Source: Gammaproteobacteria bacterium
GTDB taxonomy: Bacteria > Pseudomonadota > Gammaproteobacteria > Eutrophobiales > Eutrophobiaceae
Direction of reading: 5' to 3'
DNA length: 64,000 bases
Assembly: GCA_965238225.1 (NCBI GenBank)
Contig: OZ250183.1
Location: 928,001 to 992,000 of the forward strand
Of the stretch, positions 1 through 16,172 are shown in pieces (positions within the stretch are counted from its first letter, which is position 1; the number at the start of each line of letters is the position of its first letter). Below the pieces are notes generated by a model. The model was not told the DNA's origin. It was given only the letters and a program-made list of their open reading frames with translations, and searched no databases. The translations under genes were made by a program, and so were the position numbers.

Positions 1-1
1 A

Positions 2-988
2 CGTGCTGAGGCGACTCGATTTGCTTATAAACTAAAACAAGCGCTTGACGATAGCAATGCATTTGGTGCGGTACGCGTTACACCGGACAAAACGGCATCA
101 GGTGATTTATACGTGCTTGGTAAGATTAAAGAATCAAACGGTAAAGACGTAAAGTTTGCGCTGAATGTTATAGATATAAGTAGTAAATCATGGCTTAATC
201 GTAGTTTAAAACATGAAGTGAGAGAATCTTTTTACAAGAATTACAGGAACAGAGGTACAGACCCCTATACTCCAGTTTTTGAGCAGGCAGCTGATGAAAT
301 TATTGCTGCATTAAAAAAGCGCGATCCTTCAGAACTGGCTGACCTCAAATATATTGCAGATTTAAGATTCGGGGCGAGTTTTAATGATGCCGTTTTTATG
401 GAATACATGAATACCGATGGCAAATATATCAAGTTAAGAAGTAAGCCAAGCGACGATGACCCAATGCTGCAACGCGTGACATCAATACGTGTGCGCGAAC
501 AATTATTCGTTGATAGCCTGCAGCAAAACTACGCATCTTTTTCACAAAATATGGACGAAAGCTACTCGAAATGGCAAGAAGCTAGTTTTACTGAAAATAA
601 ACTACACAGTGCAGCAAAAACGGACAGCATCATGAAAGGGCTGGGGGGCGCATTGCTTCTTGGCTTATCAATAGCTGTTGCTATAGCATCCAAAGATACT
701 GGCAGTGTTGGTGCTGAAACCGCGCTCGCAACTGCTGCTATAGGAGGAGGTCTTGCTGGCGCATGGATGTTATCAGGTAGTTTCAAGTCTAAAGAAGAAG
801 CAAAATTACATAAAGATGCCATTAACGAGCTAGGAGAATCAATGAATGCCGATCTGGCTCCACGTGTAATATCTTTTGAGAATGAAACGATAGAATTAAC
901 TGGCAATATGCAAGAACAGTTCACTCAATGGAGAGGATTTCTTAAACGTATTTATAATCAAGAAGCAACCCCTGACACAGCTTTATAA
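2..988 (+). CDS. Hypothetical envelope protein, 5'-truncated by the window edge, with a glycine-rich hydrophobic hairpin near the C-terminus
   Basis: The frame of ORF 113..988 is open back to position 2 (RAEATRFAYKLKQALDDSNAFGAVRVTP...). Hydrophobic segments GLGGALLLGLSIAVAIAS and ALATAAIGGGLAGAWML. First visible gene of a tightly packed operon. Confidence 0.75.
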   Translation, partial: RAEATRFAYKLKQALDDSNAFGAVRVTPDKTASGDLYVLGKIKESNGKDVKFALNVIDISSKSWLNRSLKHEVRESFYKNYRNRGTDPYTPVFEQAADEIIAALKKRDPSELADLKYIADLRFGASFNDAVFMEYMNTDGKYIKLRSKPSDDDPMLQRVTSIRVREQLFVDSLQQNYASFSQNMDESYSKWQEASFTENKLHSAAKTDSIMKGLGGALLLGLSIAVAIASKDTGSVGAETALATAAIGGGLAGAWMLSGSFKSKEEAKLHKDAINELGESMNADLAPRVISFENETIELTGNMQEQFTQWRGFLKRIYNQEATPDTAL

Positions 989-1005
989 TTCGCAGGTGTA
1001 TAGTC

Positions 1006-2487
1006 ATGCTTGAGCAAAAACTCGCTGAAGTTAAGGCAAGCCAGCGCAAGAAATTTATCAATTTGTCTATTGGCTTTGTTGTAACCATACTGGTTTGCAG
1101 TGCGATTTTTATTATTGTTTCCTATTTCCAAGCACAGCCTGAAGTGGCTAAATCGATTTCTCCAAGCCCCGTTAAAGAAATAGAAGAAACCACTGCGCAA
1201 GCTGGCTTGGGAAAATCCCCATCAAGATCACTCGATGCCTTACAGGCAATGGACGATGAAGGACTGCGCCAGCGATACATAGATATTCTGAATGATTTTG
1301 AAAAAACTATTAAACCGCAACTTAATAAAATTGATCTAAACAAGCGGGATAAATCTCGTTTAAATCATCTTGCGATGTTAGAAGAACAAGCGCTTGCAAA
1401 ATTTAGCATTGCTGATTATGCGCAGGCATTAAATTATATTGAAGAATTAAAGCAGCTTGCCGAGGCAATTATCTTTGCTAGCGAAAAGCAATTTGAAGAG
1501 GCATTCTCTAATGCGCAGGAGGCATTTAATGCAGATAATTACGACGATGCCAGATTTTTTATAGATAACGCATTAATGCTCAACAATCAATCCGAAGATG
1601 CAGTTCATCTGTCAAATAAAATAGATGATCTGTCTGAAATTTTACCGCTACTTAGAAAAGTAAATATCGTCAGAGTCGAAAATAACCATGAGAAAGAACT
1701 TAAGCTTATAAAACATATCCTTAAATTAAACCCAAAACGAGAGTCGTCCATCGGGCGCAGGCATGAATTGGAAGGCATCATTAACAGGAAAAATTTCAAG
1801 TCATATGTTATTCAATCTTATAAAGCTATAGAGAAAGCTAATGTAAAAAAAGCAAAACAAAGCCTCAGAAAAGCAGGAAATATTTATCCTAATCGTCCAG
1901 AAATTACAGATATTACAATAGCACTACAGGCGCTTGAGAAAGATCAAAACTTTAAGAAGTATCAGCAGGCAGCACAAGCGGCAATAACATCTGATGATTG
2001 GGAAACGGCAAAACAACAATTGGAGTTGGCTCTGCAAGAACGAGCCAATGATAAATTAATTCAAGAATCACTAGCTGATGCGACAATGATTGTTTTTTTG
2101 CAAAACGATCTTGATAAACACATAGCCAATCCATATCGTTTGTCGAACAAACCGGTTTTGTCTACTGCAAAGTCTAAAATCTCAAAAGCTAAACCATTCA
2201 TTGATATGAGCTTATCACTGAAGAATAAAATAGAAACCTTATCTGGGCTTATCGAGAGCATGAACAAAAAAATTAATGTGGAGATTCTCTCTGATAACCA
2301 AACAAATATAATCGTTCGCAGGGTGGGTGTCGTTGGTAGAATACAATCAAAAACGATTCAACTGGCACCTGGGCATTATAAATTTGAAGGTAAACGAGAA
2401 GGCTTTAAATCAAAATTAATAGATGTGTTCATTTCCCATGAAGAAACAGATCATCAATTAAGCATTATTTGTGATGAATCCATTTGA
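1006..2487 (+). CDS. Membrane-anchored helical (TPR-like) protein with a C-terminal PEGA-like beta domain
   Basis: 493 aa. One N-terminal TM (FINLSIGFVVTILVCSAIFIIVSYF), TPR-like helices (ADYAQALNYI, DNYDDARFFIDNAL, DDWETAKQQLELAL) and a C-terminal beta segment (SDNQTNIIV...LAPGHYKFEGKREGF). Confidence 0.65.
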   Translation: MLEQKLAEVKASQRKKFINLSIGFVVTILVCSAIFIIVSYFQAQPEVAKSISPSPVKEIEETTAQAGLGKSPSRSLDALQAMDDEGLRQRYIDILNDFEKTIKPQLNKIDLNKRDKSRLNHLAMLEEQALAKFSIADYAQALNYIEELKQLAEAIIFASEKQFEEAFSNAQEAFNADNYDDARFFIDNALMLNNQSEDAVHLSNKIDDLSEILPLLRKVNIVRVENNHEKELKLIKHILKLNPKRESSIGRRHELEGIINRKNFKSYVIQSYKAIEKANVKKAKQSLRKAGNIYPNRPEITDITIALQALEKDQNFKKYQQAAQAAITSDDWETAKQQLELALQERANDKLIQESLADATMIVFLQNDLDKHIANPYRLSNKPVLSTAKSKISKAKPFIDMSLSLKNKIETLSGLIESMNKKINVEILSDNQTNIIVRRVGVVGRIQSKTIQLAPGHYKFEGKREGFKSKLIDVFISHEETDHQLSIICDESI

Positions 2488-4480
2488 TCAAAAAATACAT
2501 GTGGCAAAGAAAAAACAACGCCTGTTTTATATCAGGGTATTTGTATCACTACTAATAAGTGCGGTTATTATTTTAATGATTATCCTCGCCTCACGAGGCA
2601 CACGCATTGAAGTGAAACCTGATGATGCCGCCATACAAGCATCCATACATATAAATGCAGGGGTTGCCATGGTGATTGGTGAAACACTTTATTCAATATT
2701 AAACAATCCAGCTATTGCTGTTTCAGCAGAAGGCTTCCATACAAAGACGCAAGTGCTGGATAATAACGACTTTGGTAAAGTCATGCGTATTACTCTGAAA
2801 CCACTGCCTGCAATAGTAGAACTTGGCACAAACATTGACGATGATAAAACAGGCTGGATCATTGATGGTAAAACACTCGCTACTGGAAATATTTTTAAAT
2901 ATGAATTGCCCGCAGGTATTTACAAGCTCACCGTGATGCATCCTCATTATCATATAAAAACCGTGCCGCTATCTTTAATACGAGGTGAAACCTTCAAGAA
3001 AATCATTGAAGGTACCCCTATAGACGGCACGATAACCGTCAATACCAAGCCAAGTGGTGCCAGTGTATCAGTCAATACTGTTAAGAAGGGACTGACACCG
3101 ATCACTTTGACCGTACAAGGCGGTTATCATGATGTCATTGTTGCACACGACAAATATGAAAATATTAATGACACGATTGAAATCAGCCGCGCCACATCTG
3201 AGGTTCATCGAGATTATGTATTAGAGTTAAAAAAGACAAAGGTTGGTGTCACTTTAAAACCTGCTGGTGGAAAATTAAGTCTGGACGGTATCATACTCAA
3301 AGAAACAGACAATATCACTGTTGCAACAGGCATCAAGCATCGACTAACTTATTCTAAACAAGGTTATTTCACAAAAAGTGAAACCTTTAATATAACAGCT
3401 CGCGATACCTTGCTTTTATACTTTGAATTGACAAAAGAAATGGGAATGGTTGATATTGAATCAACACCAGAAGCTGAGGTTACATTGAACGGCGAGCCCA
3501 TGGGCACAACGCCGTTGCAATTATCCTTGCATGCTGTTCCCCAAGATATCACCCTGAGCAAACCGAAATATCGCAGTGTTACAAAGACTATTATTCCAAA
3601 GGCAGCGAGTAGCAAGAAAATTAGCGTAACCTTAACCTCTGAACTAACCGCGCGACTCAAAGAAGCACCCAAGCTATACACCAATAAAGCCGGCGGCAGA
3701 TTAAAACTATTTACACCAAATGATACTTTCACAATGGGGGCAAAGCGCAGTGAACCCGGTCAACGGATAAACGAGTTTATAAAAGAAATTAAACTTACTA
3801 GGCCATTTTATGCAGGCGTTTATGAAGTTACAAATGCGCAATACAGCCAATATGACAAGAGCAGGCAAGGTGACCCCGAAAAGCCAGTTACTTCTGTATC
3901 ATGGACAGATGCGGCCGGATTTTGTAACTGGCTTAGCCTGTCGGAGGGCTTAGAACCCGTTTACCATATTATAAATAACCGGCTGCAAAATATAAATACA
4001 AATATTGATGGCTATCGTTTGTTGACCGAAGCTGAATGGGAATGGTTAGTCAGAAAATCTGGCAAGTCGGCGCAAACTACATTTGTGTGGGGTGATGAGC
4101 GTACCATACCAAAGGGTGCTGTTAATATTGCAGATGAATCGGCCAAGGGCAAGGTCGAGAATATAGTGTCAAAATATAATGATGCTTATGCAGAGGCGGC
4201 ACCAGTGGGAAGTCTCGCACAGGAAAAATCTGGACTCTATGACCAAGGTGGTAATGTGAGTGAATGGACACATGATAGCTACTCGATAGTGCCGCCTAAA
4301 TCAGGTAAAGTGCTTCAAGACCCATTTGATTCGGCCATGGGCAATACCCATGTGGTTAAGGGAGCAAGCTGGCGCTCAGGCTCTATTACTAAGCTTCGAG
4401 CATCATTCAAGGACGGTTTAAACGATCCTCGGGATGATCTTGGTTTTAGGATTGGACGATATATCTATGCAGGAAATTAA
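2471..4480 (+). CDS. PEGA-repeat protein with a C-terminal FGE-sulfatase (SUMF1/EgtB/PvdO-type) domain
   Basis: N-terminal TM. PEGA motifs (TKPSGASVSVN..KGLTP; ESTPEAEVTLNGEPMGTTP). FGE-fold motifs FTMG, YEVTNAQY, PVTSVSW, RLLTEAEWE, GLYDQGGNVSEW, KGASW, GFRI. Confidence 0.85.
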   Translation: MMNPFDQKIHVAKKKQRLFYIRVFVSLLISAVIILMIILASRGTRIEVKPDDAAIQASIHINAGVAMVIGETLYSILNNPAIAVSAEGFHTKTQVLDNNDFGKVMRITLKPLPAIVELGTNIDDDKTGWIIDGKTLATGNIFKYELPAGIYKLTVMHPHYHIKTVPLSLIRGETFKKIIEGTPIDGTITVNTKPSGASVSVNTVKKGLTPITLTVQGGYHDVIVAHDKYENINDTIEISRATSEVHRDYVLELKKTKVGVTLKPAGGKLSLDGIILKETDNITVATGIKHRLTYSKQGYFTKSETFNITARDTLLLYFELTKEMGMVDIESTPEAEVTLNGEPMGTTPLQLSLHAVPQDITLSKPKYRSVTKTIIPKAASSKKISVTLTSELTARLKEAPKLYTNKAGGRLKLFTPNDTFTMGAKRSEPGQRINEFIKEIKLTRPFYAGVYEVTNAQYSQYDKSRQGDPEKPVTSVSWTDAAGFCNWLSLSEGLEPVYHIINNRLQNINTNIDGYRLLTEAEWEWLVRKSGKSAQTTFVWGDERTIPKGAVNIADESAKGKVENIVSKYNDAYAEAAPVGSLAQEKSGLYDQGGNVSEWTHDSYSIVPPKSGKVLQDPFDSAMGNTHVVKGASWRSGSITKLRASFKDGLNDPRDDLGFRIGRYIYAGN

Positions 4481-4482
4481 AC

Positions 4483-4635
4483 ATGAAATTATCAAGAAAT
4501 ATTAATAGAAGAGTGATCGTTACGGGGCTGTGCGTCATTTTCATGATGCTTGCGATTACAGTGATTCACAAAGTCTATGCAGAAAAATTCAAAATCAGTC
4601 TTAATTCACCGGTTTCTTTTCCAATTGATATATAA
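4483..4635 (+). CDS. Small 50-aa protein: signal peptide/TM plus a short C-terminal peptide ending SPVSFPIDI
   Basis: ATG 2 nt after the upstream stop and TAA 9 nt before the next ATG. Translates to MKLSRNINRRVIVTGLCVIFMMLAITVIHKVYAEKFKISLNSPVSFPIDI. Below the ORF-track cut-off but fills the operon gap exactly. Confidence 0.75.
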   Translation: MKLSRNINRRVIVTGLCVIFMMLAITVIHKVYAEKFKISLNSPVSFPIDI

Positions 4636-4644
4636 CTTATTGTC

Positions 4645-5394
4645 ATGATTAAAAATTTTATTGCGCTGGTTCTCTCTATCATCATCGTACATATGGTTTA
4701 CATTGGTTATGTGCGCCCTAAAGCCAATACATTAATAGAAATGGCCGAGCAACAAGGTCGGCAATCTGTATCCAGAAGTGTGGTGGTTATTGTGAAAGAT
4801 TATGAACAGGAAATCTGTTTCATCTTGATGTTCTGGGGCTTCTTCCTTGTTGCAAATAGTTATCGAGAAATATTAAAAACCAAACACTTGTTCTCGGTTG
4901 ATATGATTGAGGGTAAAGACAAAGACAGCGTGGATGTCGATAGTATTATCAAAAAATTGGACGAACAAATTCCGCAAGATTGTTTGTCGTCACCACTTGT
5001 CCAGACATTACGCTCATCGTTATGGCGATATTCAGCAACAAGAAACGTACAAAACTTATCTGATGCAATTGAAAGCAATCTTAACGCATTAGCCGCGAGA
5101 CAAGATTCTGAAAACACCATGATCCGTTATTTGATATGGGTGATTCCGTCCATCGGTTTTATCGGTACGGTACGTGGTATCGGGCAGGCATTATCCGCAG
5201 CAGACCAAGCGCTTGCTGGCGATATATCGGCAATGACAAATAGTCTCGGTGTTGCGTTTAATTCAACACTGGTTGCACTGCTGATTAGTATTTTTTTGAT
5301 GTTTCTTTTTCATCAATTACAAAGGCTGCAAGATAGTCAAATACTTGATACACAAGAATATTGTGAAAAATATTTACTCAGGCGTATAAGGTAG
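4645..5394 (+). CDS. MotA/TolQ/ExbB proton-channel family protein
   Basis: Motifs IPSIGFIGTVRGIGQAL and SLGVAFNSTLVALL match the last two TM helices of ExbB/TolQ/MotA. Confidence 0.9.
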   Translation: MIKNFIALVLSIIIVHMVYIGYVRPKANTLIEMAEQQGRQSVSRSVVVIVKDYEQEICFILMFWGFFLVANSYREILKTKHLFSVDMIEGKDKDSVDVDSIIKKLDEQIPQDCLSSPLVQTLRSSLWRYSATRNVQNLSDAIESNLNALAARQDSENTMIRYLIWVIPSIGFIGTVRGIGQALSAADQALAGDISAMTNSLGVAFNSTLVALLISIFLMFLFHQLQRLQDSQILDTQEYCEKYLLRRIR

Positions 5395-5404
5395 CTTCTC
5401 AGGA

Positions 5405-6466
5405 TTGGGCCAACGTAAGCAATCGGAAGGATTTAATCTCGCTTTTCTCGATATTATGTCGTGTGGTCTCGGCGCTGTCGTTCTTGTGTTTATGTTGGTA
5501 AAGCACAACATTAATGACTCTTCAGTTGAGCTTAAAAATCTTGAAAATGATATTCAAAATTTCGAAGTAATAAAACAAGATTCCATCCAGTTTTTGCAAA
5601 AAATTGAGACACAGATTTCTGAAGAAAGTTCGCAGGCAGAAGCGATCAAGAAAAAGCTTGCCAAGCTACAATCAGTTTTGACGAATAAGAATACCAATAT
5701 TGGAAAAATATCCAGAGAAATAGAAAGCCTTAAATCTAATATTGTAGATATAGAAATTGGAAAGAAAGAAGATTTAGTAGAAACCGAACAGGTTAATGAA
5801 GAAAATTATCTGTTGGGCCTTAAGGTTGAGGGACAAAAAATTGCGATTTTGTTAGATAGCAGCGCATCAATGACAAACGAAAAATTGATCGACATTATTA
5901 AAACTAAAAATAGTTCTAAAAAAGATAAACAACAGGCAGACAAATGGGTCAGAACAAAAAAGATTGTAGCGTGGTTGTTGGCACGTTTACCTAAAAACAG
6001 TGATATAGTTGTTGTGACCTTTAATGAAAAGGCGAAGATATTAGGTAAGCAAGGATGGATGAAAGCGATCGATCCATTAGGTTTGTCCTCAATCTTGTCT
6101 GATTTGAACAAACTGGTTCCCGAGGGTGGTACGAACCTTCAATCTGGACTACGCATGGCAAACAAATATTCACCGTCGAATTTATATCTTATCACTGATG
6201 GCTTGCCGACTAAGGGTGAGTCACGTTACAAAAACCTGAACCCATTTGCGAGCTGCAATTCTCTGCTGGGCACTTCAAACACGATTTCGGGCGAGTGTCG
6301 GATAAAACTGTTTAAGAAAACTATTGCTGAAAGTAAACAAGAAGGTGTTCAAATAAACGTTGTGTTATTACCTGTTGAAGGTGATCCTGATGCGGTAAAT
6401 CAGTATTGGTATTGGTCGGCATCAACAGGAGGATTGGTGATTAGCCCCGCGAATAATTGGCCATGA
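5405..6466 (+). CDS. vWA-domain protein with an N-terminal ExbD/TolR-like TM and a coiled coil
   Basis: TM FNLAFLDIMSCGLGAVVLVFML containing Asp, then a coiled coil. MIDAS elements DSSAS, GGTNL, ITDG. Confidence 0.85.
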   Translation: MGQRKQSEGFNLAFLDIMSCGLGAVVLVFMLVKHNINDSSVELKNLENDIQNFEVIKQDSIQFLQKIETQISEESSQAEAIKKKLAKLQSVLTNKNTNIGKISREIESLKSNIVDIEIGKKEDLVETEQVNEENYLLGLKVEGQKIAILLDSSASMTNEKLIDIIKTKNSSKKDKQQADKWVRTKKIVAWLLARLPKNSDIVVVTFNEKAKILGKQGWMKAIDPLGLSSILSDLNKLVPEGGTNLQSGLRMANKYSPSNLYLITDGLPTKGESRYKNLNPFASCNSLLGTSNTISGECRIKLFKKTIAESKQEGVQINVVLLPVEGDPDAVNQYWYWSASTGGLVISPANNWP

Positions 6467-7413
6467 AACTACGTAAACGAGCATTCGACATCTTTAATCT
6501 ATCATTCTTGGATATCATTTCATGTGGATTCGGTGCCGTAGTAATGTTAGTGCTGATTTCAAAACCATATGATAATATTTCAATTACAGGACAAGAAGAA
6601 ATCAAAGATTTATTAAAAACAGTTATCACACTTAAAAATACAATTTTCGAAATGGAACAAACTATAGGAAGTCAATCTTTAAAGGCGAGAAAATTATCAA
6701 ATAAAAATAAACAGCTGGAAATAACTGCAAATCAACTTGAGCGTAAAATACAGAATCAAGAAAAGCAACAAACATCACTTGCTGATGATCTACAAGGTTT
6801 AGCACTGGTTCAATCGACGTTGAAGAAGGCATCACTTTCAATTCAAGAATCGATTAATACGATGCGTGATGAGGAAGTAGGAGGGATTCCTGTTGATAGT
6901 GATTACCTTATCTTCATTGTCGATACATCTGGCAGTATGCGACAGATATGGAACCGTGTTTCTTCGGAGATTATAAATGTCTTGAATATTCATCCAGAGG
7001 TGAAGGGCTTTCAGATATTAAATGACATGGGTAGGTCGCTGGTATCTGGATACGATGGCAAATGGATGTCGGATACTCCCAAAAGAAGGAAGAGTGTAAT
7101 CAATATATTCGATAGCTGGGCAGAGATGTCAAACAGCAGTCCAGTAGAAGGTATCGAGACAGCACTACGAAAATATGCAAAAAAAGATATAACAACATCA
7201 ATCTATGTATTTGGTGATGATTATACAGGTTCATCTTATGACTCTGTTATTGAGAAAATAACCAAACAAAATAATTTAACTGGCACTAAAAACAGGTTCG
7301 CCAAGATTCACGGTATCGGTTTTATTTCGCCAGGGGCAACAGACCAATTTGGTATATTGATGCGTGAGTTGACAAAACAAAACGGCGGGACATTTCTAGC
7401 CTTGCCACTTTAG
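6463..7413 (+). CDS. Second vWA-domain protein with an N-terminal ExbD/TolR-like TM and a coiled coil
   Basis: ATGA overlap with the previous stop. TM FNLSFLDIISCGFGAVVMLVLI, a coiled coil, MIDAS DTSGS and FGDD. Confidence 0.85.
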   Translation: MKLRKRAFDIFNLSFLDIISCGFGAVVMLVLISKPYDNISITGQEEIKDLLKTVITLKNTIFEMEQTIGSQSLKARKLSNKNKQLEITANQLERKIQNQEKQQTSLADDLQGLALVQSTLKKASLSIQESINTMRDEEVGGIPVDSDYLIFIVDTSGSMRQIWNRVSSEIINVLNIHPEVKGFQILNDMGRSLVSGYDGKWMSDTPKRRKSVINIFDSWAEMSNSSPVEGIETALRKYAKKDITTSIYVFGDDYTGSSYDSVIEKITKQNNLTGTKNRFAKIHGIGFISPGATDQFGILMRELTKQNGGTFLALPL

Positions 7414-7818
7414 GTTAATAATTTTTTGAACTTAATTCAGAGCTTGCAATAAAAAACTAAGGAAATTTCATAGTTTAAGATCTCGTTAACAAATAGATGA
7501 GTGATTGTCATAGGAAGCAAAAGAGGCTTGAAGATACCTTTGATAAGTTTTCTTTATTTTAGTACAGCAAAGGTTTAGAGACTGCTGCATAGGAAACGGT
7601 GCCTATTATTTACTTAACCATTATAAGATTAACGAGTTAGCTCAGTGTTTACCGTAAGGTGCTGCGTTTTGGCTTTTTATTCGACAGTCTTAATGTTAAT
7701 ATAGACATCGTACGTAATCAAAATATGTAATACAGATCACATAAACAGTTAGGATAAATTTTTTATTTATTATAATCCTGTTTTATTATCAGCGATACAA
7801 AATCAGGGACAGTCTGTT

Positions 7819-7891: not shown

Positions 7892-8344
7892 ATGAACAGT
7901 AGAAAACAGCACAGGCAGAATAATCATCAACAGGGTTTTTCCATGATAGAGCTGATGGTAGTAGTTGCGATCGTTGGCATTATGGCCTCAGTCGCGCTGC
8001 CAACCTATCAAAATTATACCGAAAAAACTCAGCTAGCGGCGGTTTCATCAGAGCTTGCAAGCGCCAAAAAAGCGTATCATATAATCAAAGCTGCGGGAGA
8101 GGAACCACAGTCTCTCCGAGATCAAGACAACTGGATTGGCGTGAATATTGAATCTGACTCCGGTGCATGCTGGATGCAGATCCACTTATCCCCAACAATA
8201 GACTTATCGTGCCGTATCAATAAAGGGCACTTTAAGGGAGCATACATTTATTTAGATTATGATTCTAATCCTCCTTGGAATTGTAGTTTTGAAGGCACAC
8301 CACTCATACCCAGTGATCTTCAAAAGTATGTGACCGCCTGCTAG
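7892..8344 (+). CDS. Type IVa pilin-like protein
   Basis: Prepilin cleavage/methylation motif QG|[28 protein letters not shown]-terminal cysteines, and a GGAGG RBS at about 7881. Confidence 0.9.
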
Positions 8345-8755: not shown

Positions 8756-8917
8756 ATAATTTATTAATTTCAATGATTGTTTCGATGCAAGTATTGTATA
8801 CTGTCAACAGCATTGCACCAACGCAGGTAAAGATGAGCGGTTTATTGTTTGTGTACGAGATTATTTACGTGTTTTTTTCTTTTATTATTTAGATTGATAA
8901 AGGGTATAACAAACCAG

Positions 8918-9286
8918 ATGTTGGAAAATTATTTCCCCATTCTTGTATTCATTATTATTGGCTTGGTGCTGGGTACCACGATGATCATTATTGGGTTTGG
9001 TTTTGGTAAGTTGATGGGTCATGCTCGTCCGGATTCTGTAAAACAGTCTCCTTATGAATGCGGCTTCGAAGCATTTGAAAATGCCCGTATTAAATTTGAC
9101 GTTCGTTATTATCTTGTTGCCATCTTATTTATTATCTTTGATCTTGAAATTGCATTTCTCTTTCCATGGGCAGTTGTGCTTGAAGAAATAGGCTTGGCTG
9201 GGTTTTGGGCAATGATGATTTTTCTTGGCGTGCTTGTGATTGGTTTTATTTATGAATGGCGCAAAGGAGCTCTTGAATGGGAGTAA
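8918..9286 (+). CDS. nuoA: NADH-quinone oxidoreductase subunit A
   Basis: [11 protein letters not shown]..., [32 protein letters not shown]. Start moved to ATG 8918. Confidence 0.97.
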
Positions 9287-9795
9287 CACAACAAACTGGA
9301 GTATTGAATATGACTCAGGATATGGAAGGCACCGTTCATGAAAAAGGCATTGTCACTACAACAGTAGATAACGTTGTTAATTGGGCCAGAACAGGATCCC
9401 TATGGCCGATGACCTTTGGTTTGGCATGTTGTGCCGTAGAGATGATGCAGGCGGGTGCTTCTCGTTATGATATGGATCGTTTTGGTGTCATTTTCAGGCC
9501 CAGCCCTCGTCAATCTGATGTAATGATAGTTGCTGGTACGCTGGTTAATAAGATGGCACCTGCACTACGAAAAGTTTATGACCAGATGGCAGAACCACGT
9601 TGGGTAATATCCATGGGTTCATGTGCAAATGGAGGTGGTTATTATCACTACTCTTATTCTGTGGTCAGGGGTTGTGACCGAATTGTTCCTGTGGATGTTT
9701 ATGTGCCAGGCTGCCCACCTACGGCAGAGGCGCTTTTGTTTGGGATCATACAACTGCAAAATAAAATCAAACGCACTAACACGATTGAGTGTTAA
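9277..9795 (+). CDS. nuoB: NADH-quinone oxidoreductase subunit B
   Basis: [30 protein letters not shown]. Confidence 0.97.
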
Positions 9796-9827
9796 CTTGA
9801 AACACTTGAAATAATAATTTCAAAAAT

Positions 9828-10508
9828 ATGGCAAGTTCTGTTGTGAAACTGGTGGATTTTATCAAGCAGCGTTTTGGTGAAAAGGTGCTTGATGTGCAGG
9901 TTGCTTTTGGGCAGGTAGTGATTGAGTTAACACCGGATCATTTGCTTGCAGTTTGCCAGTCACTTAAAAATGAAGAGGAATTCTCCTTTCAGCAATTAGT
10001 TGATCTGTGTGGCGTTGATTACTCAACTTTTGGCAAGGCAGACTGGGAAACCAAAAGTACGTCAAGCACAGGGTTTAGTCGTGGCGTGAGTAAAGAAATT
10101 TTTGATGATGAAACACAAACGCAACTACGATTTGCTGTGGTCTATCATCTACTGTCTATTAAGCACAATCAGCGATTGCGTGTTCGCTGCATGATTAATG
10201 AAACACCCGCAAAGATTGAATCTGTAGTTAGACTCTGGGCATCAGCAAATTGGTATGAGCGTGAGGCTTTTGATTTATTCGGTATTCTTTTTGAAGGCCA
10301 TCCTGACTTAAGGAGAATTTTGACCGATTATGGTTTTATCGGGCATCCATTTAGGAAGGATTTTCCGTTGGAAGGAAACGTTGAAGTGCGTTACGACCCT
10401 GAACAAAAACGTGTGATCTATCAGCCTGTGACTATTACTAACCGTGTTTTGGTGCCACGAGTCATTCGTCATGATAATCGTTATGAGGAAGCGAGCGATG
10501 ATACATAA
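9828..10508 (+). CDS. nuoC: NADH-quinone oxidoreductase subunit C
   Basis: [35 protein letters not shown]. Confidence 0.97.
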
Positions 10509-10622
10509 AACAATGACGCATAAAAAGATATTTAAGATGAGCATCAACATGAAATTACTATGTGTTTGTATATAAAAATTAAAGCGCAACGATTGTTATT
10601 TTTCATTTTGGATGTATGAAAA

Positions 10623-11876
10623 ATGCCTGATATTAGTAATATGACAATGAATTTTGGGCCGCAGCATCCTGCTGCCCATGGTGTCCTGCGTTTGGTGTTG
10701 GAAATGAACGGTGAAGTGATTGAAAGAGCCGATCCGCATATTGGTTTATTGCACCGAGGTACGGAAAAATTAGCTGAGTATAAACCATACAATCAAAATA
10801 TCGGTTATATGGATAGGCTTGATTATGTTTCCATGATGTGTAATGAGCATGCTTATGTGATGGCAATTGAAAAACTCATAGACGTTACACCGCCACCTCG
10901 CGCGCAATATATCCGTGTTATGTATGCAGAAATTACCCGTATATTAAATCATTTAATGTGGCTCGGAACCCACGCGCTGGATATCGGCGCTATGACTATG
11001 TTTTTATATTGTTTTCGTGAACGTGAAGATCTCATGGACTGTTATGAAGCAGTCTCGGGCACACGCATGCATGCAACTTATTTTCGTCCAGGAGGCGTTT
11101 ATAGAGATCTCCCTAAAACGATGCCTCAATATGAAATATCAAAATGGCATAACGAAAAAGAAGTGAAAAAAATGAATCAAAGCAGACAAGGTTCTTTGCT
11201 TGATTTTATCAAAAGATTCACAGAGAAATTTCCTGGTTGTGTTGATGAATATGAAACGCTATTAACGGACAATAGAATCTGGAAACAGCGTACTGTTGAC
11301 ATTGGTGTTGTTTCGGCAGAAAGAGCATTACAGCTAGGGTTTACTGGTCCGATGTTAAGAGGTTCTGGCGTTGAATGGGATCTGCGTAAAAAACAAACTT
11401 ATGATATTTATGACCAAGTTGAGTTTGATATTCCGGTTGGAGTCAATGGTGATTGTTATGATCGCTATCTAGTTCGAATTGAGGAAATGCGTCAATCTAA
11501 TAGTATTATTAAACAATGTGTAGACTGGTTAAAACAAAATCCAGGACCAGTAATCTTGGATGACTCCAAATTAATCTCACCAAGACGTGAAGATATGAAA
11601 GGCGATATGGAATCTCTTATTCATCACTTTAAATTATTTACTGAAGGCTATTGTGTGCCAGAAGGTGAAACTTACTCAGCAGTAGAGCATCCAAAAGGCG
11701 AATTTGGAATTTATTTAATTTCTGATGGAGCAAATAAACCGTACCGATTGAAAATTCGCGCTCCTGGTTTTGCACATTTATCAGCCATGGATGAAATGGT
11801 CAGGGGTCATATGTTGTCTGATGTAGTAACAGTGATAGGAACACAGGATATTGTCTTTGGAGAAATAGATCGATGA
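10623..11876 (+). CDS. nuoD: NADH-quinone oxidoreductase subunit D
   Basis: [33 protein letters not shown]. Confidence 0.98.
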
Positions 11877-11996
11877 TTTCAGTTTTTTTCTTTTATCTTA
11901 ATACATTGCTGTTTTATTTTTTTAAACTATTCATGTCTTACCTTAAAGAAAAAGTATTTGCTAAAAATTTACCTGTTAAAATTGAATTTATCTATA

Positions 11997-12479
11997 GTGA
12001 GCGATCTGAGTCCACACGTTAAAACCGAGATTGATCGTTGGGTTGCGAAATACCCTGCAGATCGAAAACAGTCTGCAGTTTTGGCTGCCTTGCGTTCTGT
12101 GCAACATGAAAATCAGGGGTATCTGAATGTTAATCTGATGGATTTAGTGGCTGAGTATTTAGGTATGCCAGCTATTGCTGTTTATGAAGTTGCCTCTTTT
12201 TATTCTATGTTAGAAACAGAAAAATGTGGTCGGCATAGTATTTCTGTTTGTACCAATATCTCATGTATGTTGAATGGTTCTGGAGAAATCATGGAGTACA
12301 TAGAAAAAAAATTGGGCATTAAGGAAGGTGAATCAACAGAGGATAATCGTTTTTATATCAAACAGGAGGAGGAATGTCTTGCTGCCTGTTGCGGTGCGCC
12401 GATGATGATGGTTGATCATATTTATTACGAAAACTTGACCCCTGAAAAAGTTGATAAAATCTTGGATAATCTGGAGTAG
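11997..12479 (+). CDS. nuoE: NADH-quinone oxidoreductase subunit E
   Basis: 2Fe-2S motifs CTNISC and CLAAC..AP. The start (GTG 11997) is uncertain. Confidence 0.95.
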
Positions 12480-12486
12480 TTTGCAC

Positions 12487-13770
12487 ATGGAGAAATTAAA
12501 TCAGGTTTGCTACGCAACATGCCAATTTGATAAATCGTGGACACTGGAAAATTATATTCGAGTTGACGGTTATGAGGCGTGGTCAAAAATTATCAATGAG
12601 AGAATCCCCCCTGAAGATATAATTGAAATCGTAAAAAAATCTGGTTTACGTGGTCGCGGTGGCGCTGGTTTTCCAACGGGACTGAAATGGAGTTTTATGC
12701 CACGCGATATTGATATTGCAAAGTACGTTGTTTGTAACTCGGATGAAAGCGAGCCAGGTACTTGCAAAGACCGTGATATTTTGCGTTTTAATCCGCATTC
12801 TTTGGTAGAAGGTTTGGCAATTGCTTGTTATGCCATGAATACCAAAGTGGCTTATAACTATATTCGCGGCGAATTCATGGATGAACCTTATCAACGTTTT
12901 GAGCAAGCATTAAAAGAGGCTTACCAACAAGGTTATCTGGGTAAAAATATTATGGGATCTGGAGTAGAAGTAGATATTTATAGCACTTTAGGCGCTGGCG
13001 CTTATATCTGCGGTGAGGAAACTGCATTACTCGAATCATTGGAAGGTAAAAAAGGTCAGCCACGTTTTAAACCACCTTTTCCTGCCAATTTTGGCTTGTA
13101 CGGCAGACCCACTACTATCAACAATACCGAGTCTTTTGCTTCTGTGCCATCTATTGTAAAAAATGGTGCCGACTGGTTTGCTAAAATGGGCGTGCCTAAC
13201 AGCGGTGGCAGCAAATGCTTTTCAGTGAGCGGACATGTAAATAAACCAGGTAACTTTGAAGTGCCCTTGGGTATGCCTTTTACGGATTTATTGAATCTTG
13301 CTGGCGGCGTGCGTCATGGTAATCAACTAAAAGCCGTGATCCCAGGCGGTTCTTCTGTTCCTGTAATGCATGGCAAAGACATGATGGATGTAAAGATGGA
13401 TTATGAATCCATTCAAGAAGCTGGCTCCTATCTTGGTTCCGGTGCTGTGATTATTATGGACGAGACCACATGCATGGTGCGCATGCTTGAACGTATTGCT
13501 CGTTTTTATTATTCAGAATCTTGTGGCCAATGTACGCCATGTCGTGAGGGAACTGGTTGGCTGTATCGAATGATTAAACGCATTGAACATGGAGCAGGTG
13601 AGCAAGAGGATCTGGATAAATTAATTGATGTTGCGAATAAAATAGAAGGTAGAACTATTTGTGCTTTGGGTGATGCAGCAGCATGGCCGGTGCAAAGTTT
13701 TGTTAAAAGGTTTCGTGATGAATTTCAATATCACATAGACAATAAATGTTGTATGCCAGGAATAGTATGA
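12487..13770 (+). CDS. nuoF: NADH-quinone oxidoreductase subunit F
   Basis: [47 protein letters not shown]. Confidence 0.98.
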
Positions 13771-16172
13771 CAAATGATATTTTAAATATTGAAGTAGATG
13801 GTAAGTCTTTAAAGGCGCGGTCTGGGCAGATGCTCATTGAAGTGACAGACGCCAATGATATTTATATCCCTAGATTTTGTTATCACAAAAAATTAACTGT
13901 TGCTGCTAATTGTCGTATGTGCCTAGTTGAGGTTGAGAAAGCACGAACTCCATTGCCTGCCTGCGCTACATCGGTAACGGATGGCATGAAGGTGCAGACT
14001 CGTTCAAAGCTTGCCATTGAAGCACAGAAATCTGTCATGGAATTTCTACTTATTAATCATCCGCTTGATTGTCCAATTTGTGATCAAGGTGGAGAGTGTG
14101 AGTTACAGGATCTTGCAGTTGGATACGGCGAGGGCATTTCGCGCTATCAGGAAAGCAAAAGAGTTGTTAAGGATAAAAATCTTGGTCCATTGATTCAAAC
14201 AGATATGACTCGCTGCATCCATTGTACGCGTTGTGTTCGATTTGGTGAAGAGATTGCAGGTCTACGTGAGATGGGTTCCGTAGGACGAGGTGAACGCATG
14301 GAGATAGGCACCTACATAGAAAAGGGCGTATCCTCTGAAATGTCAGGCAATATTATTGATATTTGCCCCGTTGGTGCATTAACCTCAAAACCTTTTAGAT
14401 TTTCAGCACGTGCATGGGAAATGGTACAACATGAGAGTATTGCACCTCATGATTCTGTTGGTTCGAAAATGGCGTTGCACATCAAGGATGGTCGCGTTAT
14501 GCGCGTTGTTCCAGCAGAGAATGAAAGTATTAATGAAGTTTGGTTATCAGATCGCGATCGATTTAGTTACGAGGGAATGTATAGCGATGATCGTTTGCAA
14601 ACACCAATGATTAAACAAAATGGTGTTTGGGAAGAAACAGATTGGCAGACTGCGCTTCAGTATTTAAGTGAAAATCTAGATAATACTTTGGTAAAACACG
14701 GCGGCGATAAGCTAGGCGGATTAATATCTCCCACATCAACACTTGAAGAACTTTATTTATTCCAGAAATTATTACGCGCACTTGGAAGTAATAATATTGA
14801 TAGTCGTTTACGTCAAAATGATTTTTTGCAACAAGATGGAGATCCACCATTCCCATATCTGGGTCAGTCGATTGCAGCATTAGAAGATCTTGATGCGGTA
14901 TTGGTGATTGGCAGTAATGTTAGAAAAGAGCAGCCGATAATCAATCATCGTTTACGTAAGGCATCATTAAAAGGTGCCTGTGTGATGATGGTTAATTCAG
15001 TTGATTATGAGTTTAATTACGATATTTCTGAGAAGATCATCTTATCACCATCAGAAATCACAACGGTATTGTCAGGTATCATCAAGGCATTATCTGAAAT
15101 AGGGGGTCGTTCAGTAGATGCTGCTGTCCAATCACTAATAAGCGATGTGAGTATAAATGCATCACATCGCAAGATAGCCGAAAAATTATTTAAAGCTCAA
15201 GCAGGGTCAGTTTTATTAGGCAATCTAGCTACAGCACATGAAAAATTTTCAACATTAAAAATATTAGCATTAGAAATTGCCAAATTTGCCGATATTAAAT
15301 ATGGCTTCATCAGCGAAGCATCAAATACAAGTGGCGCATATTTGGCGGGTGCATTGCCTCATCGAGGCGCAGGCGGTGGAATGCTTAATGGTTCATCAGG
15401 ATTAACAATTGGGGCAATGTTGGAGCAATCTTTAAATGCCTATTTATTGCTTGGTGTTGAGCCAGAGATGGATTGCTGGGATGGTGGCAAAGCACTTAAG
15501 GCATTGGAAAATGCAGAGTTTGTTGTTTCAATGACAGCATATCAATCAGAACTCATGAAACAATATGCCGATGTGCTTTTACCTATTGCACTTTTTGCAG
15601 AAACTTCCGGCACCTACATTAATGTTGAAGGACAATCGCAAAGTTTTACAGCAGCAGTAGACCCTGCGGGTGAAGCACGGCCGGCATGGAAAATTCTCCG
15701 TATCATGGGTAATTTGATGGGTCTTGAACAATTTGAATACAACAGTTTCAAAGAAGTTAAAGACGAAATTGCCAGTGTTATTGATAGCGTTGCTTTAGAT
15801 AGTATAGGTAACTGGACGATGCCAGAATCTTTAAAAAATGACACAATGAATGCTGACATGGCTAAAAGTGGTGTATTGCAAAGAATTACAGAAATCTCAA
15901 TGTACAGTATTGACGCTATGATCAGAAGGGCGCAAGCACTGCAAAATACAGATGACAGTAAAAGCATGATTCAAATCAATTCTTCACTGGCGCATAAGGT
16001 TAATGTTGCGGCAGGAGATACTGTTGTCGTTAAGCAGGAAGGAAATAGCATCAGCGCACCTGTAATGATTAATGATAGGGTCTCAGATAATTGTGTATCG
16101 ATTCATTTAGCACAAATGAGCCATTCCAGATTAGGCGCATGGCATGGAAATGTCAGCTTAAGGAAAGCATAA
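13767..16172 (+). CDS. nuoG: NADH-quinone oxidoreductase subunit G
   Basis: [42 protein letters not shown] overlap with nuoF. Confidence 0.98.

Follow-up and report, generated by a model that had tools for sequence, protein, structure and literature searches.

A conserved eight-gene cassette encoding a putative ion-driven envelope motor with von Willebrand factor A-type axle subunits

RESULTS

Gene content and layout of the cassette

This study concerns a 64,000-nucleotide stretch of a gammaproteobacterial genome (contig OZ250183.1, positions 928,001 to 992,000; GenBank assembly GCA_965238225.1), which we refer to as the window, and in particular the run of genes at its 5′ end, which we interpret as a cassette for a putative ion-driven envelope motor. 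The source genome is a single contig of 1.72 Mb. An earlier note on this DNA, made without database searches, had described seven co-directional, tightly packed genes here, and all seven open reading frames (ORFs) are indeed present on the + strand, at window positions 2-988, 1006-2487, 2471-4480, 4483-4635, 4645-5394, 5405-6466, and 6457/6463-7413. Taken in order from the ORF coordinates, the junctions between them measure +17, -17, +2, +9, +10, and -4 to -10 nt. ORF 2-988 corresponds to the last 328 aa of a lipoprotein of 415 aa (g1), the true start of which lies 259 nt 5′ of the window, and a further gene, encoding a 219-aa secreted acidic protein (g0), is located entirely 5′ of the window and overlaps the start of g1 by 4 nt. 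We therefore consider the operon to comprise eight genes, g0 to g7, and not seven. The nearest ORF 5′ of g0 is 340 nt distant.

Searches against Pfam agreed with the families that had been read from the sequence. ORF 4645-5394 (g5) scores 57.7 bits for MotA_ExbB (PF01618), where the cut-off is 22.9 (E 1.3e-15), which substantiates the claim of a MotA/TolQ/ExbB subunit, whilst the protein proposed to combine PEGA and FGE domains (2471-4480; g3) matches PEGA in two significant stretches (E 1e-27) and FGE-sulfatase (PF03781) with 113.1 bits (E 2.3e-32). The claimed lack of TonB, TolA, a classical ExbD/TolR subunit, and an OmpA-type MotB domain was likewise upheld, since no ExbD, TonB, TolA, or OmpA domain was found by Pfam in any of the operon proteins at E <= 0.01.

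The motor core

The g5 gene (4645-5394, +) encodes a 249-aa channel subunit of the MotA/TolQ/ExbB family, which is presumed to form a pentamer. Eight residues of its pore-lining helices (P168, G171, G174, T175, V176, G178, A204, and T208) are identical in the TolQ and two ExbB proteins of the host, and the same set is invariant among 12 g5 homologues; the mean column identity of the homologue alignment is 76%. The host genome carries five MotA-family genes, and its three ExbD/TolR genes each adjoin one or two of the other four. These motor loci consist of ybgC-tolQ-tolR-tolA-tolB, an exbB-exbB-exbD cluster with a TonB-like ORF after it (so labeled from reading its sequence), and an exbB-exbD pair. 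All three genomic matches to ExbD (PF02472) thus lie at other loci, and g5 is the only MotA-family gene of the host without an ExbD partner.

Directly 3′ of g5 are the genes for the two putative axle subunits. The first, g6 (5405-6466, +), encodes 353 aa, with an Asp at position 16 of its transmembrane (TM) helix that is invariant in 53 sequences, a coiled coil over residues ~35-125 (residues 33-132 match coiled-coil proteins), and a head of the von Willebrand factor A (vWA) type that matches VWA_2 with 40 bits (cut-off 27; E 6.7e-10). The metal-ion-dependent adhesion site (MIDAS) of this head is complete and, in the same 53 sequences, invariant (D151, S153, S155, T243, and D265), and the head also contains a conserved Cys284/Cys298 pair. 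The second, g7 (6463-7413, +), encodes 316 aa. Its TM helix carries Asp17, which is invariant in 51 sequences, and the stretch that follows also matches coiled-coil proteins. In the head, D154, S156, S158, and D252 are invariant across the 51 sequences, NSSPxEG stands where GGT would be expected, and the position of the Thr is indistinct. A comparison of g6 with g7 by hhalign gave a probability of 99.2 and an E value of 3.6e-19 over the first ~157 residues; judged by these profiles, the two are paralogues. Because of its invariant DxSxS motif and its N-terminal paralogy to g6, we assign g7 to the vWA proteins, and its head is probably best called divergent vWA-like.

The partner proteins

The lipoprotein encoded by g1 (window 1..988, ORF 2-988; whole gene at 13741-14988, +, in the coordinates of locus L002) comprises a lipobox, an alpha/beta domain, a hydrophobic Gly-rich hairpin, and, at its C-terminal end, a second alpha/beta module that is conserved. 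The lipobox Cys25 is invariant in 45 sequences. An AlphaFold2 (AF2) model has an overall predicted local distance difference test (pLDDT) score of 71.5, rising to ~90 over residues 60-290. When the alpha/beta domain (model residues 55-234) was superposed on solved structures (VIA), it matched a flagellar LPHT-ring chain (Z 11.1), CT253 (Z 10.9), DUF330 (Z 10.7), PelC (Z 10.7, root-mean-square deviation [rmsd] 2.4 over 109 residues), a curli-complex chain (Z 10.6), the TolB N-domain (Z 10.0, rmsd 2.7 over 101 residues), PqiC (Z 8.8), and TraT (Z 7.1 over 107 residues). Foldseek placed DUF330 and FlgT at E 6.9e-4 and others at up to 3e-2, and the sequence of g1 found no match among Protein Data Bank (PDB) sequences at E <= 10. 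In the model, then, the fold of this domain is PelC/CsgG/LptE/TolB-N-like, and many of the matched proteins are ring-forming outer-membrane lipoproteins. TraT itself, a decamer, is anchored in the outer membrane by an alpha-helical barrel (PMC11733297). Pfam matches of g1 to TraT are weak (12 of 45 homologues, best E 0.013) and the Atlas lead to TraT scores 0.75, and we treat kinship with TraT as a lead and not as membership. With ring lipoproteins of the TraT/PelC/CsgG type, g1 shares the lipobox, the alpha/beta fold, and the hydrophobic helices; it differs from them in lacking sequence-level membership and in possessing the extra conserved C-terminal module.

Both g2 and g3 encode bitopic inner-membrane proteins. 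That of g2 (1006..2487, +) is 493 aa in length and runs from an N-terminal TM helix through a disordered linker and TPR-like repeats to a C-terminal beta-sandwich. Its AF2 model (pLDDT 90.5) places the helical repeats, ~335 residues in all, at 84-419 and the sandwich at 423-486. The sandwich is transthyretin/PEGA-like and superposes on the transthyretin-like domain of carboxypeptidase D with Z 8.6 and rmsd 2.2 over 70 residues (VIA). For the TPR-like part, structural matches reached Z 10.6 at most, which is within the background for helical proteins; TPR_14 fell below the Pfam cut-off (E 0.0096), and Foldseek returned nothing for g2 at E <= 0.001.

The 669-aa product of g3 (2471..4480, +) has an N-terminal TM anchor without a lipobox, followed by PEGA repeats, of which there may be up to five when counted by eye, and a C-terminal FGE-sulfatase (C-type-lectin-like) fold. 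The nearest solved chains to this fold are FGE (4.5e-10), the target protein TvpA of a diversity-generating retroelement (5.5e-10), and PorK (3e-9). GldK (TIGR03525) is the best NCBIfam match, with a score of 72.7 bits where the cut-off is 350. In the alignment of g3, KGASWRS stands opposite the FGE catalytic motif RGGSYLC, such that the first catalytic Cys is replaced by an invariant Ser636; the counterpart of the second, which we take to be spaced five residues after the first, is Lys641. As the catalytic Cys pair is replaced, we regard this domain as a scaffold or binding domain and not as an FGE.

The outermost gene, g0 (L002 13085-13744, +), begins and ends upstream of the window. In its product, a signal peptide is followed by a module of ~40 residues in which two Cys are invariant, then by an acidic, variable linker rich in Ser and Gly, and then by a conserved helix motif at the C-terminus, the last residues of which are LWNEYRKYKG. 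Among 33 members, no Pfam family was matched at E <= 1 beyond chance level, and a search of the Atlas with g0 gave only unnamed clusters.

A small exported peptide with a conserved C-terminus

Between g3 and g5 lies g4 (4483..4635, +), which encodes a 50-aa precursor consisting of a signal peptide and then ~17 residues ending SFP(V/I)DI-COOH. The hydrophobic core of the signal peptide varies freely, whilst the junction keeps a (V/A)-x-(A/G/S) signal-peptidase site at -3/-1, and the final 13 residues hardly vary (S39, L40, S45, F46, P47, D49, and I50 do not change in 37 sequences). Conservation of this kind fits a cleaved Sec signal peptide, the removal of which would release a periplasmic peptide of ~17 residues ending FP(V/I)DI-COOH. 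Of 80 related loci, 78 have this tail, and in the remaining two the DNA does not extend 5′ of g5. No other ORF of >= 25 aa in the whole 1.72-Mb genome has such a C-terminus, which argues that g4 is a dedicated part of the cassette and not a tag common to many substrates.

Conservation and distribution of the cassette

At least 7,864 relatives of g5 were found at E <= 0.001 among the 8,000 candidates scored, and the best 120 are 74-100% identical to it. A scan of one genome per species yielded 211 stretches encoding a g5 relative, of which the best 80 were analyzed as loci. Among these 80, g5 identity across classes is 61-83%, and the genomes are labeled Methylophaga, Thiotrichaceae, Crenotrichaceae, Methylomonas, Nitrosomonadaceae, Desulfocapsaceae, Desulfobacteraceae, Myxococcota, Rhodospirillales, Magnetovibrio, and Sneathiella. 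Related loci span the Gamma-, Beta-, and Alphaproteobacteria, the Desulfobacterota, and the Myxococcota.

A survey of gene-neighborhood conservation, which the earlier note had proposed as a check on its reading, recovered the same eight genes in the same order in 55 of the 56 loci with enough flanking DNA (48 by single-sequence phmmer, and seven with g4 located by its C-terminal motif). Of the 80 loci, 76 keep the order g5-g6-g7; in the remaining four, from which g6 or g7 is missing, the contig breaks off. This clustering is far beyond chance. No conserved neighbor was found among 119 flanking ORFs of 20 loci, the flanks being heterogeneous (131 ORFs from 22 loci were listed, and the 12 ORFs of L035 and L053 were left out), and we therefore regard the module as self-contained.

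The sole roomy locus without g0-g2 is L013, from a metagenome-assembled genome labeled Methylomonas, in which unrelated genes on the opposite strand abut g3, upstream of position 7813. Either the cassette is truncated there or the contig was mis-joined.

The distribution of the module is patchy. We found g6 in one of 10 other genomes of the same genus, in 12 of 41 relatives including the source genome, and in 22 of 300 genomes drawn evenly at class level (with the source genome counted, one genome unscored, and one positive, G063, flagged as unpublished). In a midpoint-rooted tree of 76 g6 rows, the window sequence falls in a starred clade of 37 rows, the other 36 of which are all Pseudomonadota and, wherever a finer label is given, gammaproteobacterial. 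Elsewhere in the tree, and going by the submitters' labels, Nitrosomonadaceae are nested with Thermodesulfobacteriota and Myxococcota with a support of 98/94, a pattern which suggests cross-phylum transfer and leaves its direction unproven. Searches with tblastn found no match to g5 among plasmids (PLSDB, E <= 1e-20) or to g6 among phage records (E <= 1e-8).

A divergent nine-gene form

Genome searches yielded ten further loci, of which three have the eight-gene form and seven (L093-L095 and L098-L101) a divergent nine-gene form. In those nine-gene loci that were listed in the search of the 41 relatives, g6 is 33-38% identical, and all seven carry an extra gene of 308-453 aa, without a signal peptide, between g5 and g6 (for example, L094:7974-9335, +). 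The extra gene belongs to no Pfam family. A profile built from the seven sequences matched the DnaK nucleotide-binding domain (E 0.008) and FHA domains (Ki-67; E 0.0024) weakly but concordantly, and the protein might serve the motor as a regulator or a signal relay in the cytoplasm. In five of the seven nine-gene loci, the peptide gene is replaced by one for a secreted, acidic, probably disordered protein of 70-97 aa ending FP(V/A)DI (L093, stop at 11367; L094:6863-7156; L095:7428-7643; L099:7281-7517; and L101:7344-7598). The persistence of the FPxDI end in both the eight-gene and the nine-gene forms marks it as the functional element.

Genomic setting of the insertion

In the source genome, the cassette is preceded by tpiA, secG, and tRNA-Leu(GAG), and followed by a lone pilin-like gene and then by nuoA-nuoE (NADH dehydrogenase I; window 8849-12479, +). 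The distance from tRNA-Leu to nuoA is ~11.6 kb here, versus ~0.77 kb in G004, a complete genome of the same genus without the cassette. The cassette is thus part of an ~11.6-kb insertion between tRNA-Leu and nuoA, and since the nuo genes lie ~0.77 kb from tRNA-Leu in the same-genus genome, the insertion can be dated to within the genus. No direct repeats flanking the insertion were found, and neither the ORF list nor Pfam revealed an integrase-like ORF between tRNA-Leu and nuoA. The GC content of the cassette is unremarkable, and promoter and terminator scans at both of its ends gave nothing above shuffled sequences. Given this insertion, together with the presence of g6 in one of 10 same-genus and 22 of 300 class-level genomes, we take the module to be an accessory one that moves horizontally.

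Two other genes are located within the same interval. The pilin-like gene at window 7892-8344 (+) encodes 150 aa with a prepilin-type N_methyl motif (E 4.7e-9), and no other pilus genes are nearby. At L002:11570-12745 (+), between tRNA-Leu(GAG) and the cassette and in the same insertion, is a 391-aa ORF with hydrophobic C-terminal helices and no Pfam family. Both were considered as members of the module and rejected, as neither was found in any of the 80 loci.

DISCUSSION

Relation to previously predicted motors

The earlier note had put the locus forward as an undescribed system. For the three-gene core, this does not hold: a TolQ-like pentamer with a heterologous pair of vWA proteins appeared in print as a prediction in 2025 (Williams-Jones et al., Mol Biol Evol 2025;42:msaf138; PMC12204202). 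In section 8 and Fig. 4c-d of that paper, 5:2 motors formed by TolQ-like and "trans-pore helix" (TPH)-vWA proteins are predicted in silico. TM-anchored vWA homologues are described there as co-occurring tightly with tolQ homologues that lack tolR/exbD, mostly as heterologous pairs; their TolR/ExbD-like trans-pore helix carries a conserved Asp, which AlphaFold3 places inside the Thr ring of the TolQ-like pentamer. The locus described here shares with those motors the tolQ-like gene without an adjoining tolR or exbD, the two heterologous TM-anchored vWA genes directly 3′ of it, the TM Asp, and the Proteobacteria-wide spread, and we see no difference in the core. The difference lies in the five partner genes, which are absent from that paper's account of these motors, as is any experiment: its main text contains the terms PEGA and FGE zero times, and one of its supplements contains PEGA and sulfatase zero times. 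The function of the TPH-vWA proteins is stated in that account to be unknown, and deletion phenotypes are stated there not to have been reported. When we searched the literature for this set of genes or for subsequent experiments, only this paper came up, and vWA goes unmentioned in a 2026 review that cites it (PMC12905483).

What we add to the predicted core is the ring-lipoprotein fold of g1, the g2 model, and the Cys-less FGE site of g3; the signal-peptidase logic of g4, its genome-wide uniqueness, and the FPxDI end conserved across architectures; and the DnaK/FHA-like gene of the nine-gene form together with the tRNA-Leu/nuoA insertion context.

A proposed mechanism

The explanation that we consider best overall is a self-contained, eight-gene, proton-driven envelope motor with a Tol-Pal-like output, for which we would put the probability at roughly 0.55. 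In motors of the MotA/ExbB/TolQ type, a pentamer surrounds a dimer in a 5:2 arrangement and ion flow drives the dimer. By analogy, it is highly probable that five g5 subunits would surround a g6:g7 heterodimer whose N-terminal helices bear the proton-binding Asp, and that ion flow through the Asp/Thr sites would turn or cycle the dimer, as it does in Ton, Tol, and Mot. This part of the reading draws on established knowledge of 5:2 motors and on the 2025 prediction for homologues, as set out in the section cited above (PMC12204202). Coiled coils of ~90 residues would then lift the two vWA/MIDAS heads into the periplasm, where they would replace the periplasmic domain of ExbD, TolR, or MotB.

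On balance, the odds are about even that g2 and g3 form a periplasmic scaffold that reaches the outer-membrane lipoprotein g1. In such an arrangement, g2 and g3 would be anchored beside the motor, the FGE/C-type-lectin fold of g3 would serve as it does in PorK/GldK ring scaffolds, and g1 would form a lipoprotein ring, with its Gly-rich hairpin possibly inserted in the outer membrane. The role of g4 is more tentative. There is a precedent for the binding of a C-terminal carboxylate by a vWA MIDAS, that of complement C3b with factor B, and the g4 17-mer, with its invariant Asp-Ile-COOH, might conceivably act as a MIDAS ligand or adaptor, or else as a strand that completes a periplasmic domain. 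The acidic g0 protein could perhaps also be a MIDAS ligand or adaptor.

The output is the weakest step. We think that the motor might convert proton-motive force into mechanical work on its own outer-membrane lipoprotein ring, in a manner more akin to Tol-Pal than to uptake, secretion, or defense, but we hold this to be doubtful. The likeness to Tol-Pal comprises the inner-membrane motor of the 5:2 type, a transducer spanning the periplasm, an outer-membrane lipoprotein, a TPR-type accessory protein, and the TolB-N-like fold of g1. The cassette differs in having no periplasmic TolR domain, TolA, beta-propeller, or OmpA-like peptidoglycan-binding domain, and its force-bearing heads would be of the vWA/MIDAS kind; furthermore, the host keeps a separate ybgC-tolQRA-tolB locus.

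Several observations weigh against the proposed motor and its output. First, VWA_2 lies below the Pfam cut-off in g7, with an E value of 0.037 for the protein itself and weak matches in 30 of 51 family members (best E 5.9e-4); thus, of the two vWA heads claimed by the earlier note on Asp-containing TM proteins, that of 5405-6466 stands (VWA_2, 40 bits), whereas that of 6463-7413 is assigned through its DxSxS motif and its paralogy to g6. Second, comparison of the g6 family with the host's three ExbD/TolR proteins by hhalign found no homology (E 0.68, over an unrelated stretch). The sole likeness is in the Asp motif compared by eye, which reads N-L-x-F-L-D-I-(M/I) in g6 and g7 versus N-(V/I/L)-(V/T)-P-x-(I/L)-D-V-(M/V) in host ExbD/TolR. 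As the profile comparison gives no link, g6 and g7 would act like ExbD/TolR/MotB axle subunits yet stand outside the ExbD/TolR family. Third, g1 residues 298-351, which form the Gly-rich pair of hydrophobic helices, are modeled with pLDDT < 50. Fourth, the E. coli sorting rule sends lipoproteins with a non-Asp residue at +2 to the outer membrane, and it is from the lipobox and the non-Asp +2 residue of g1, by this rule, that we place the protein there. Fifth, the cassette encodes no outer-membrane beta-barrel, peptidoglycan-binding domain, or enzyme, and the output is therefore guessed from architecture alone. Finally, because the host already has Tol-Pal and Ton systems, a redundant role in the envelope is not obviously needed.

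Alternative explanations

The earlier note had also claimed that the locus matches none of the Ton, Tol-Pal, flagellar stator, Zorya, Agl, or type IX secretion system (T9SS) machines, and in this it was right, since the defining parts of each are missing. Of the alternatives, the one that survives best, although we consider it improbable, is a Zorya-type anti-phage or envelope-stress sensor, in which an idle motor would sense damage and then either leak protons (abortive infection) or signal inward. Like Zorya, the locus has a 5:2 unit of the MotAB type in an accessory, horizontally spread cassette. The patchy distribution (one of 10 same-genus and 22 of 300 class-level genomes), the island-like insertion beside a tRNA gene, and the hint of cross-phylum transfer in the g6 tree (support 98/94) would all suit a defense system, and the DnaK-NBD/FHA-like protein of the nine-gene form could relay a signal inward. 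However, g5, at 249 aa, has no long ZorA tail, and neither the peptidoglycan-binding domain of ZorB nor ZorC, ZorD, or ZorE is present. PADLOC gave only a weak match to ZorA2 (E 8.6e-5, 19.7 bits), confined to the MotA domain of g5, and matched no other system protein. In addition, neither a nuclease nor a protease nor any other effector is encoded in the cassette, the 20 loci are flanked mostly by genes for housekeeping, transport, and signaling and not by defense islands, and no plasmid or phage copy was found.

Marginally less probable again is a machine for adhesion or surface motility that follows the logic of Agl-Glt or of T9SS/gliding, in which a TolQ-type motor would drive vWA adhesin heads along an FGE-fold scaffold. 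The FGE fold of g3 is about as near to PorK (3e-9) as to FGE, its best NCBIfam match is GldK, and the gliding machine of Myxococcus, which is driven by a TolQR-type motor, is reported to use a vWA lipoprotein, CglB, as its adhesin (PMC9946355). Compared with GldLM (PorLM) and the PorK/GldK-PorN ring, the cassette likewise combines a MotA-like motor and a periplasmic shaft with an FGE fold devoid of FGE chemistry and Ig-like periplasmic repeats. Against this, the GldK score of 72.7 bits falls far short of the cut-off of 350, and g3 is anchored by a TM helix and not lipidated through a lipobox. There is no GldL/M/N (PorL/M/N), Sov, Glt protein, or outer-membrane barrel in the cassette, and its hosts are Proteobacteria and Desulfobacterota, not Bacteroidota. 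The vWA heads, being tethered to the inner membrane, would also be unable to reach the cell surface.

We regard as very unlikely a Ton-like energizer of an outer-membrane transporter encoded elsewhere, with the vWA heads in place of the TonB C-terminal domain. The 2025 paper, in its section on these proteins, does group the vWA proteins with TonB/TolA-like force transducers (PMC12204202), and in one of the 20 loci (L019) a TonB-dependent receptor lies ~2 kb downstream; yet no receptor is conserved with the cassette, which has five dedicated partners of its own, and the host has a separate ExbB-ExbD locus with a TonB-like ORF.

The least probable alternative, to which we give almost no weight, is that g4 is a substrate of g3, the FGE-like domain of which would modify the Ser in the S-F-P-x-D motif to yield a signal or cofactor: g4 starts 2 nt after g3, and its S-F-P-(V/I)-D presumably resembles the sulfatase/FGE target motif C/S-x-P-x-R, but we rejected modification of g4 by g3 because g3 has the invariant Ser636 and Lys641 where FGE has its catalytic cysteines, and the peptide contains no Cys, nor does the cassette hold any other maturation or export gene.

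Significance

We thus return to the self-contained, proton-driven envelope motor as our preferred reading. To our knowledge, 5:2 ion motors are the only known means of delivering energy to the outer membrane of Gram-negative bacteria, and each new output of such a motor (uptake, division, rotation, gliding, or defense) has opened a field. The cassette is compact, strictly conserved, and widespread, and its list of parts, which runs to eight genes and takes in a ring-type lipoprotein and an overlooked peptide of 17 residues, is by now full enough for testing. It occurs in non-pathogenic strains that are in culture (Methylophaga thiooxydans, M. muralis, M. sulfidovorans, and Magnetovibrio blakemorei), which makes both genetics and cryo-electron microscopy feasible, and genes for a TPH-vWA motor are also reported from Idiomarina in the 2025 account (PMC12204202).

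A bolder version of the motor, which we think unlikely as it stands, would make it a fifth functional class beside Ton, Tol, Mot/Gld, and Zorya. In it, the two MIDAS sites of a rotating heterodimeric axle would grip the Asp-Ile-COOH of g4, a cage of PEGA and FGE folds would pass the force to a TraT/PelC-like ring, and the hairpins of that ring in the outer membrane would constitute an energized gate or tether, the whole being encoded by a self-contained cassette that moves horizontally.

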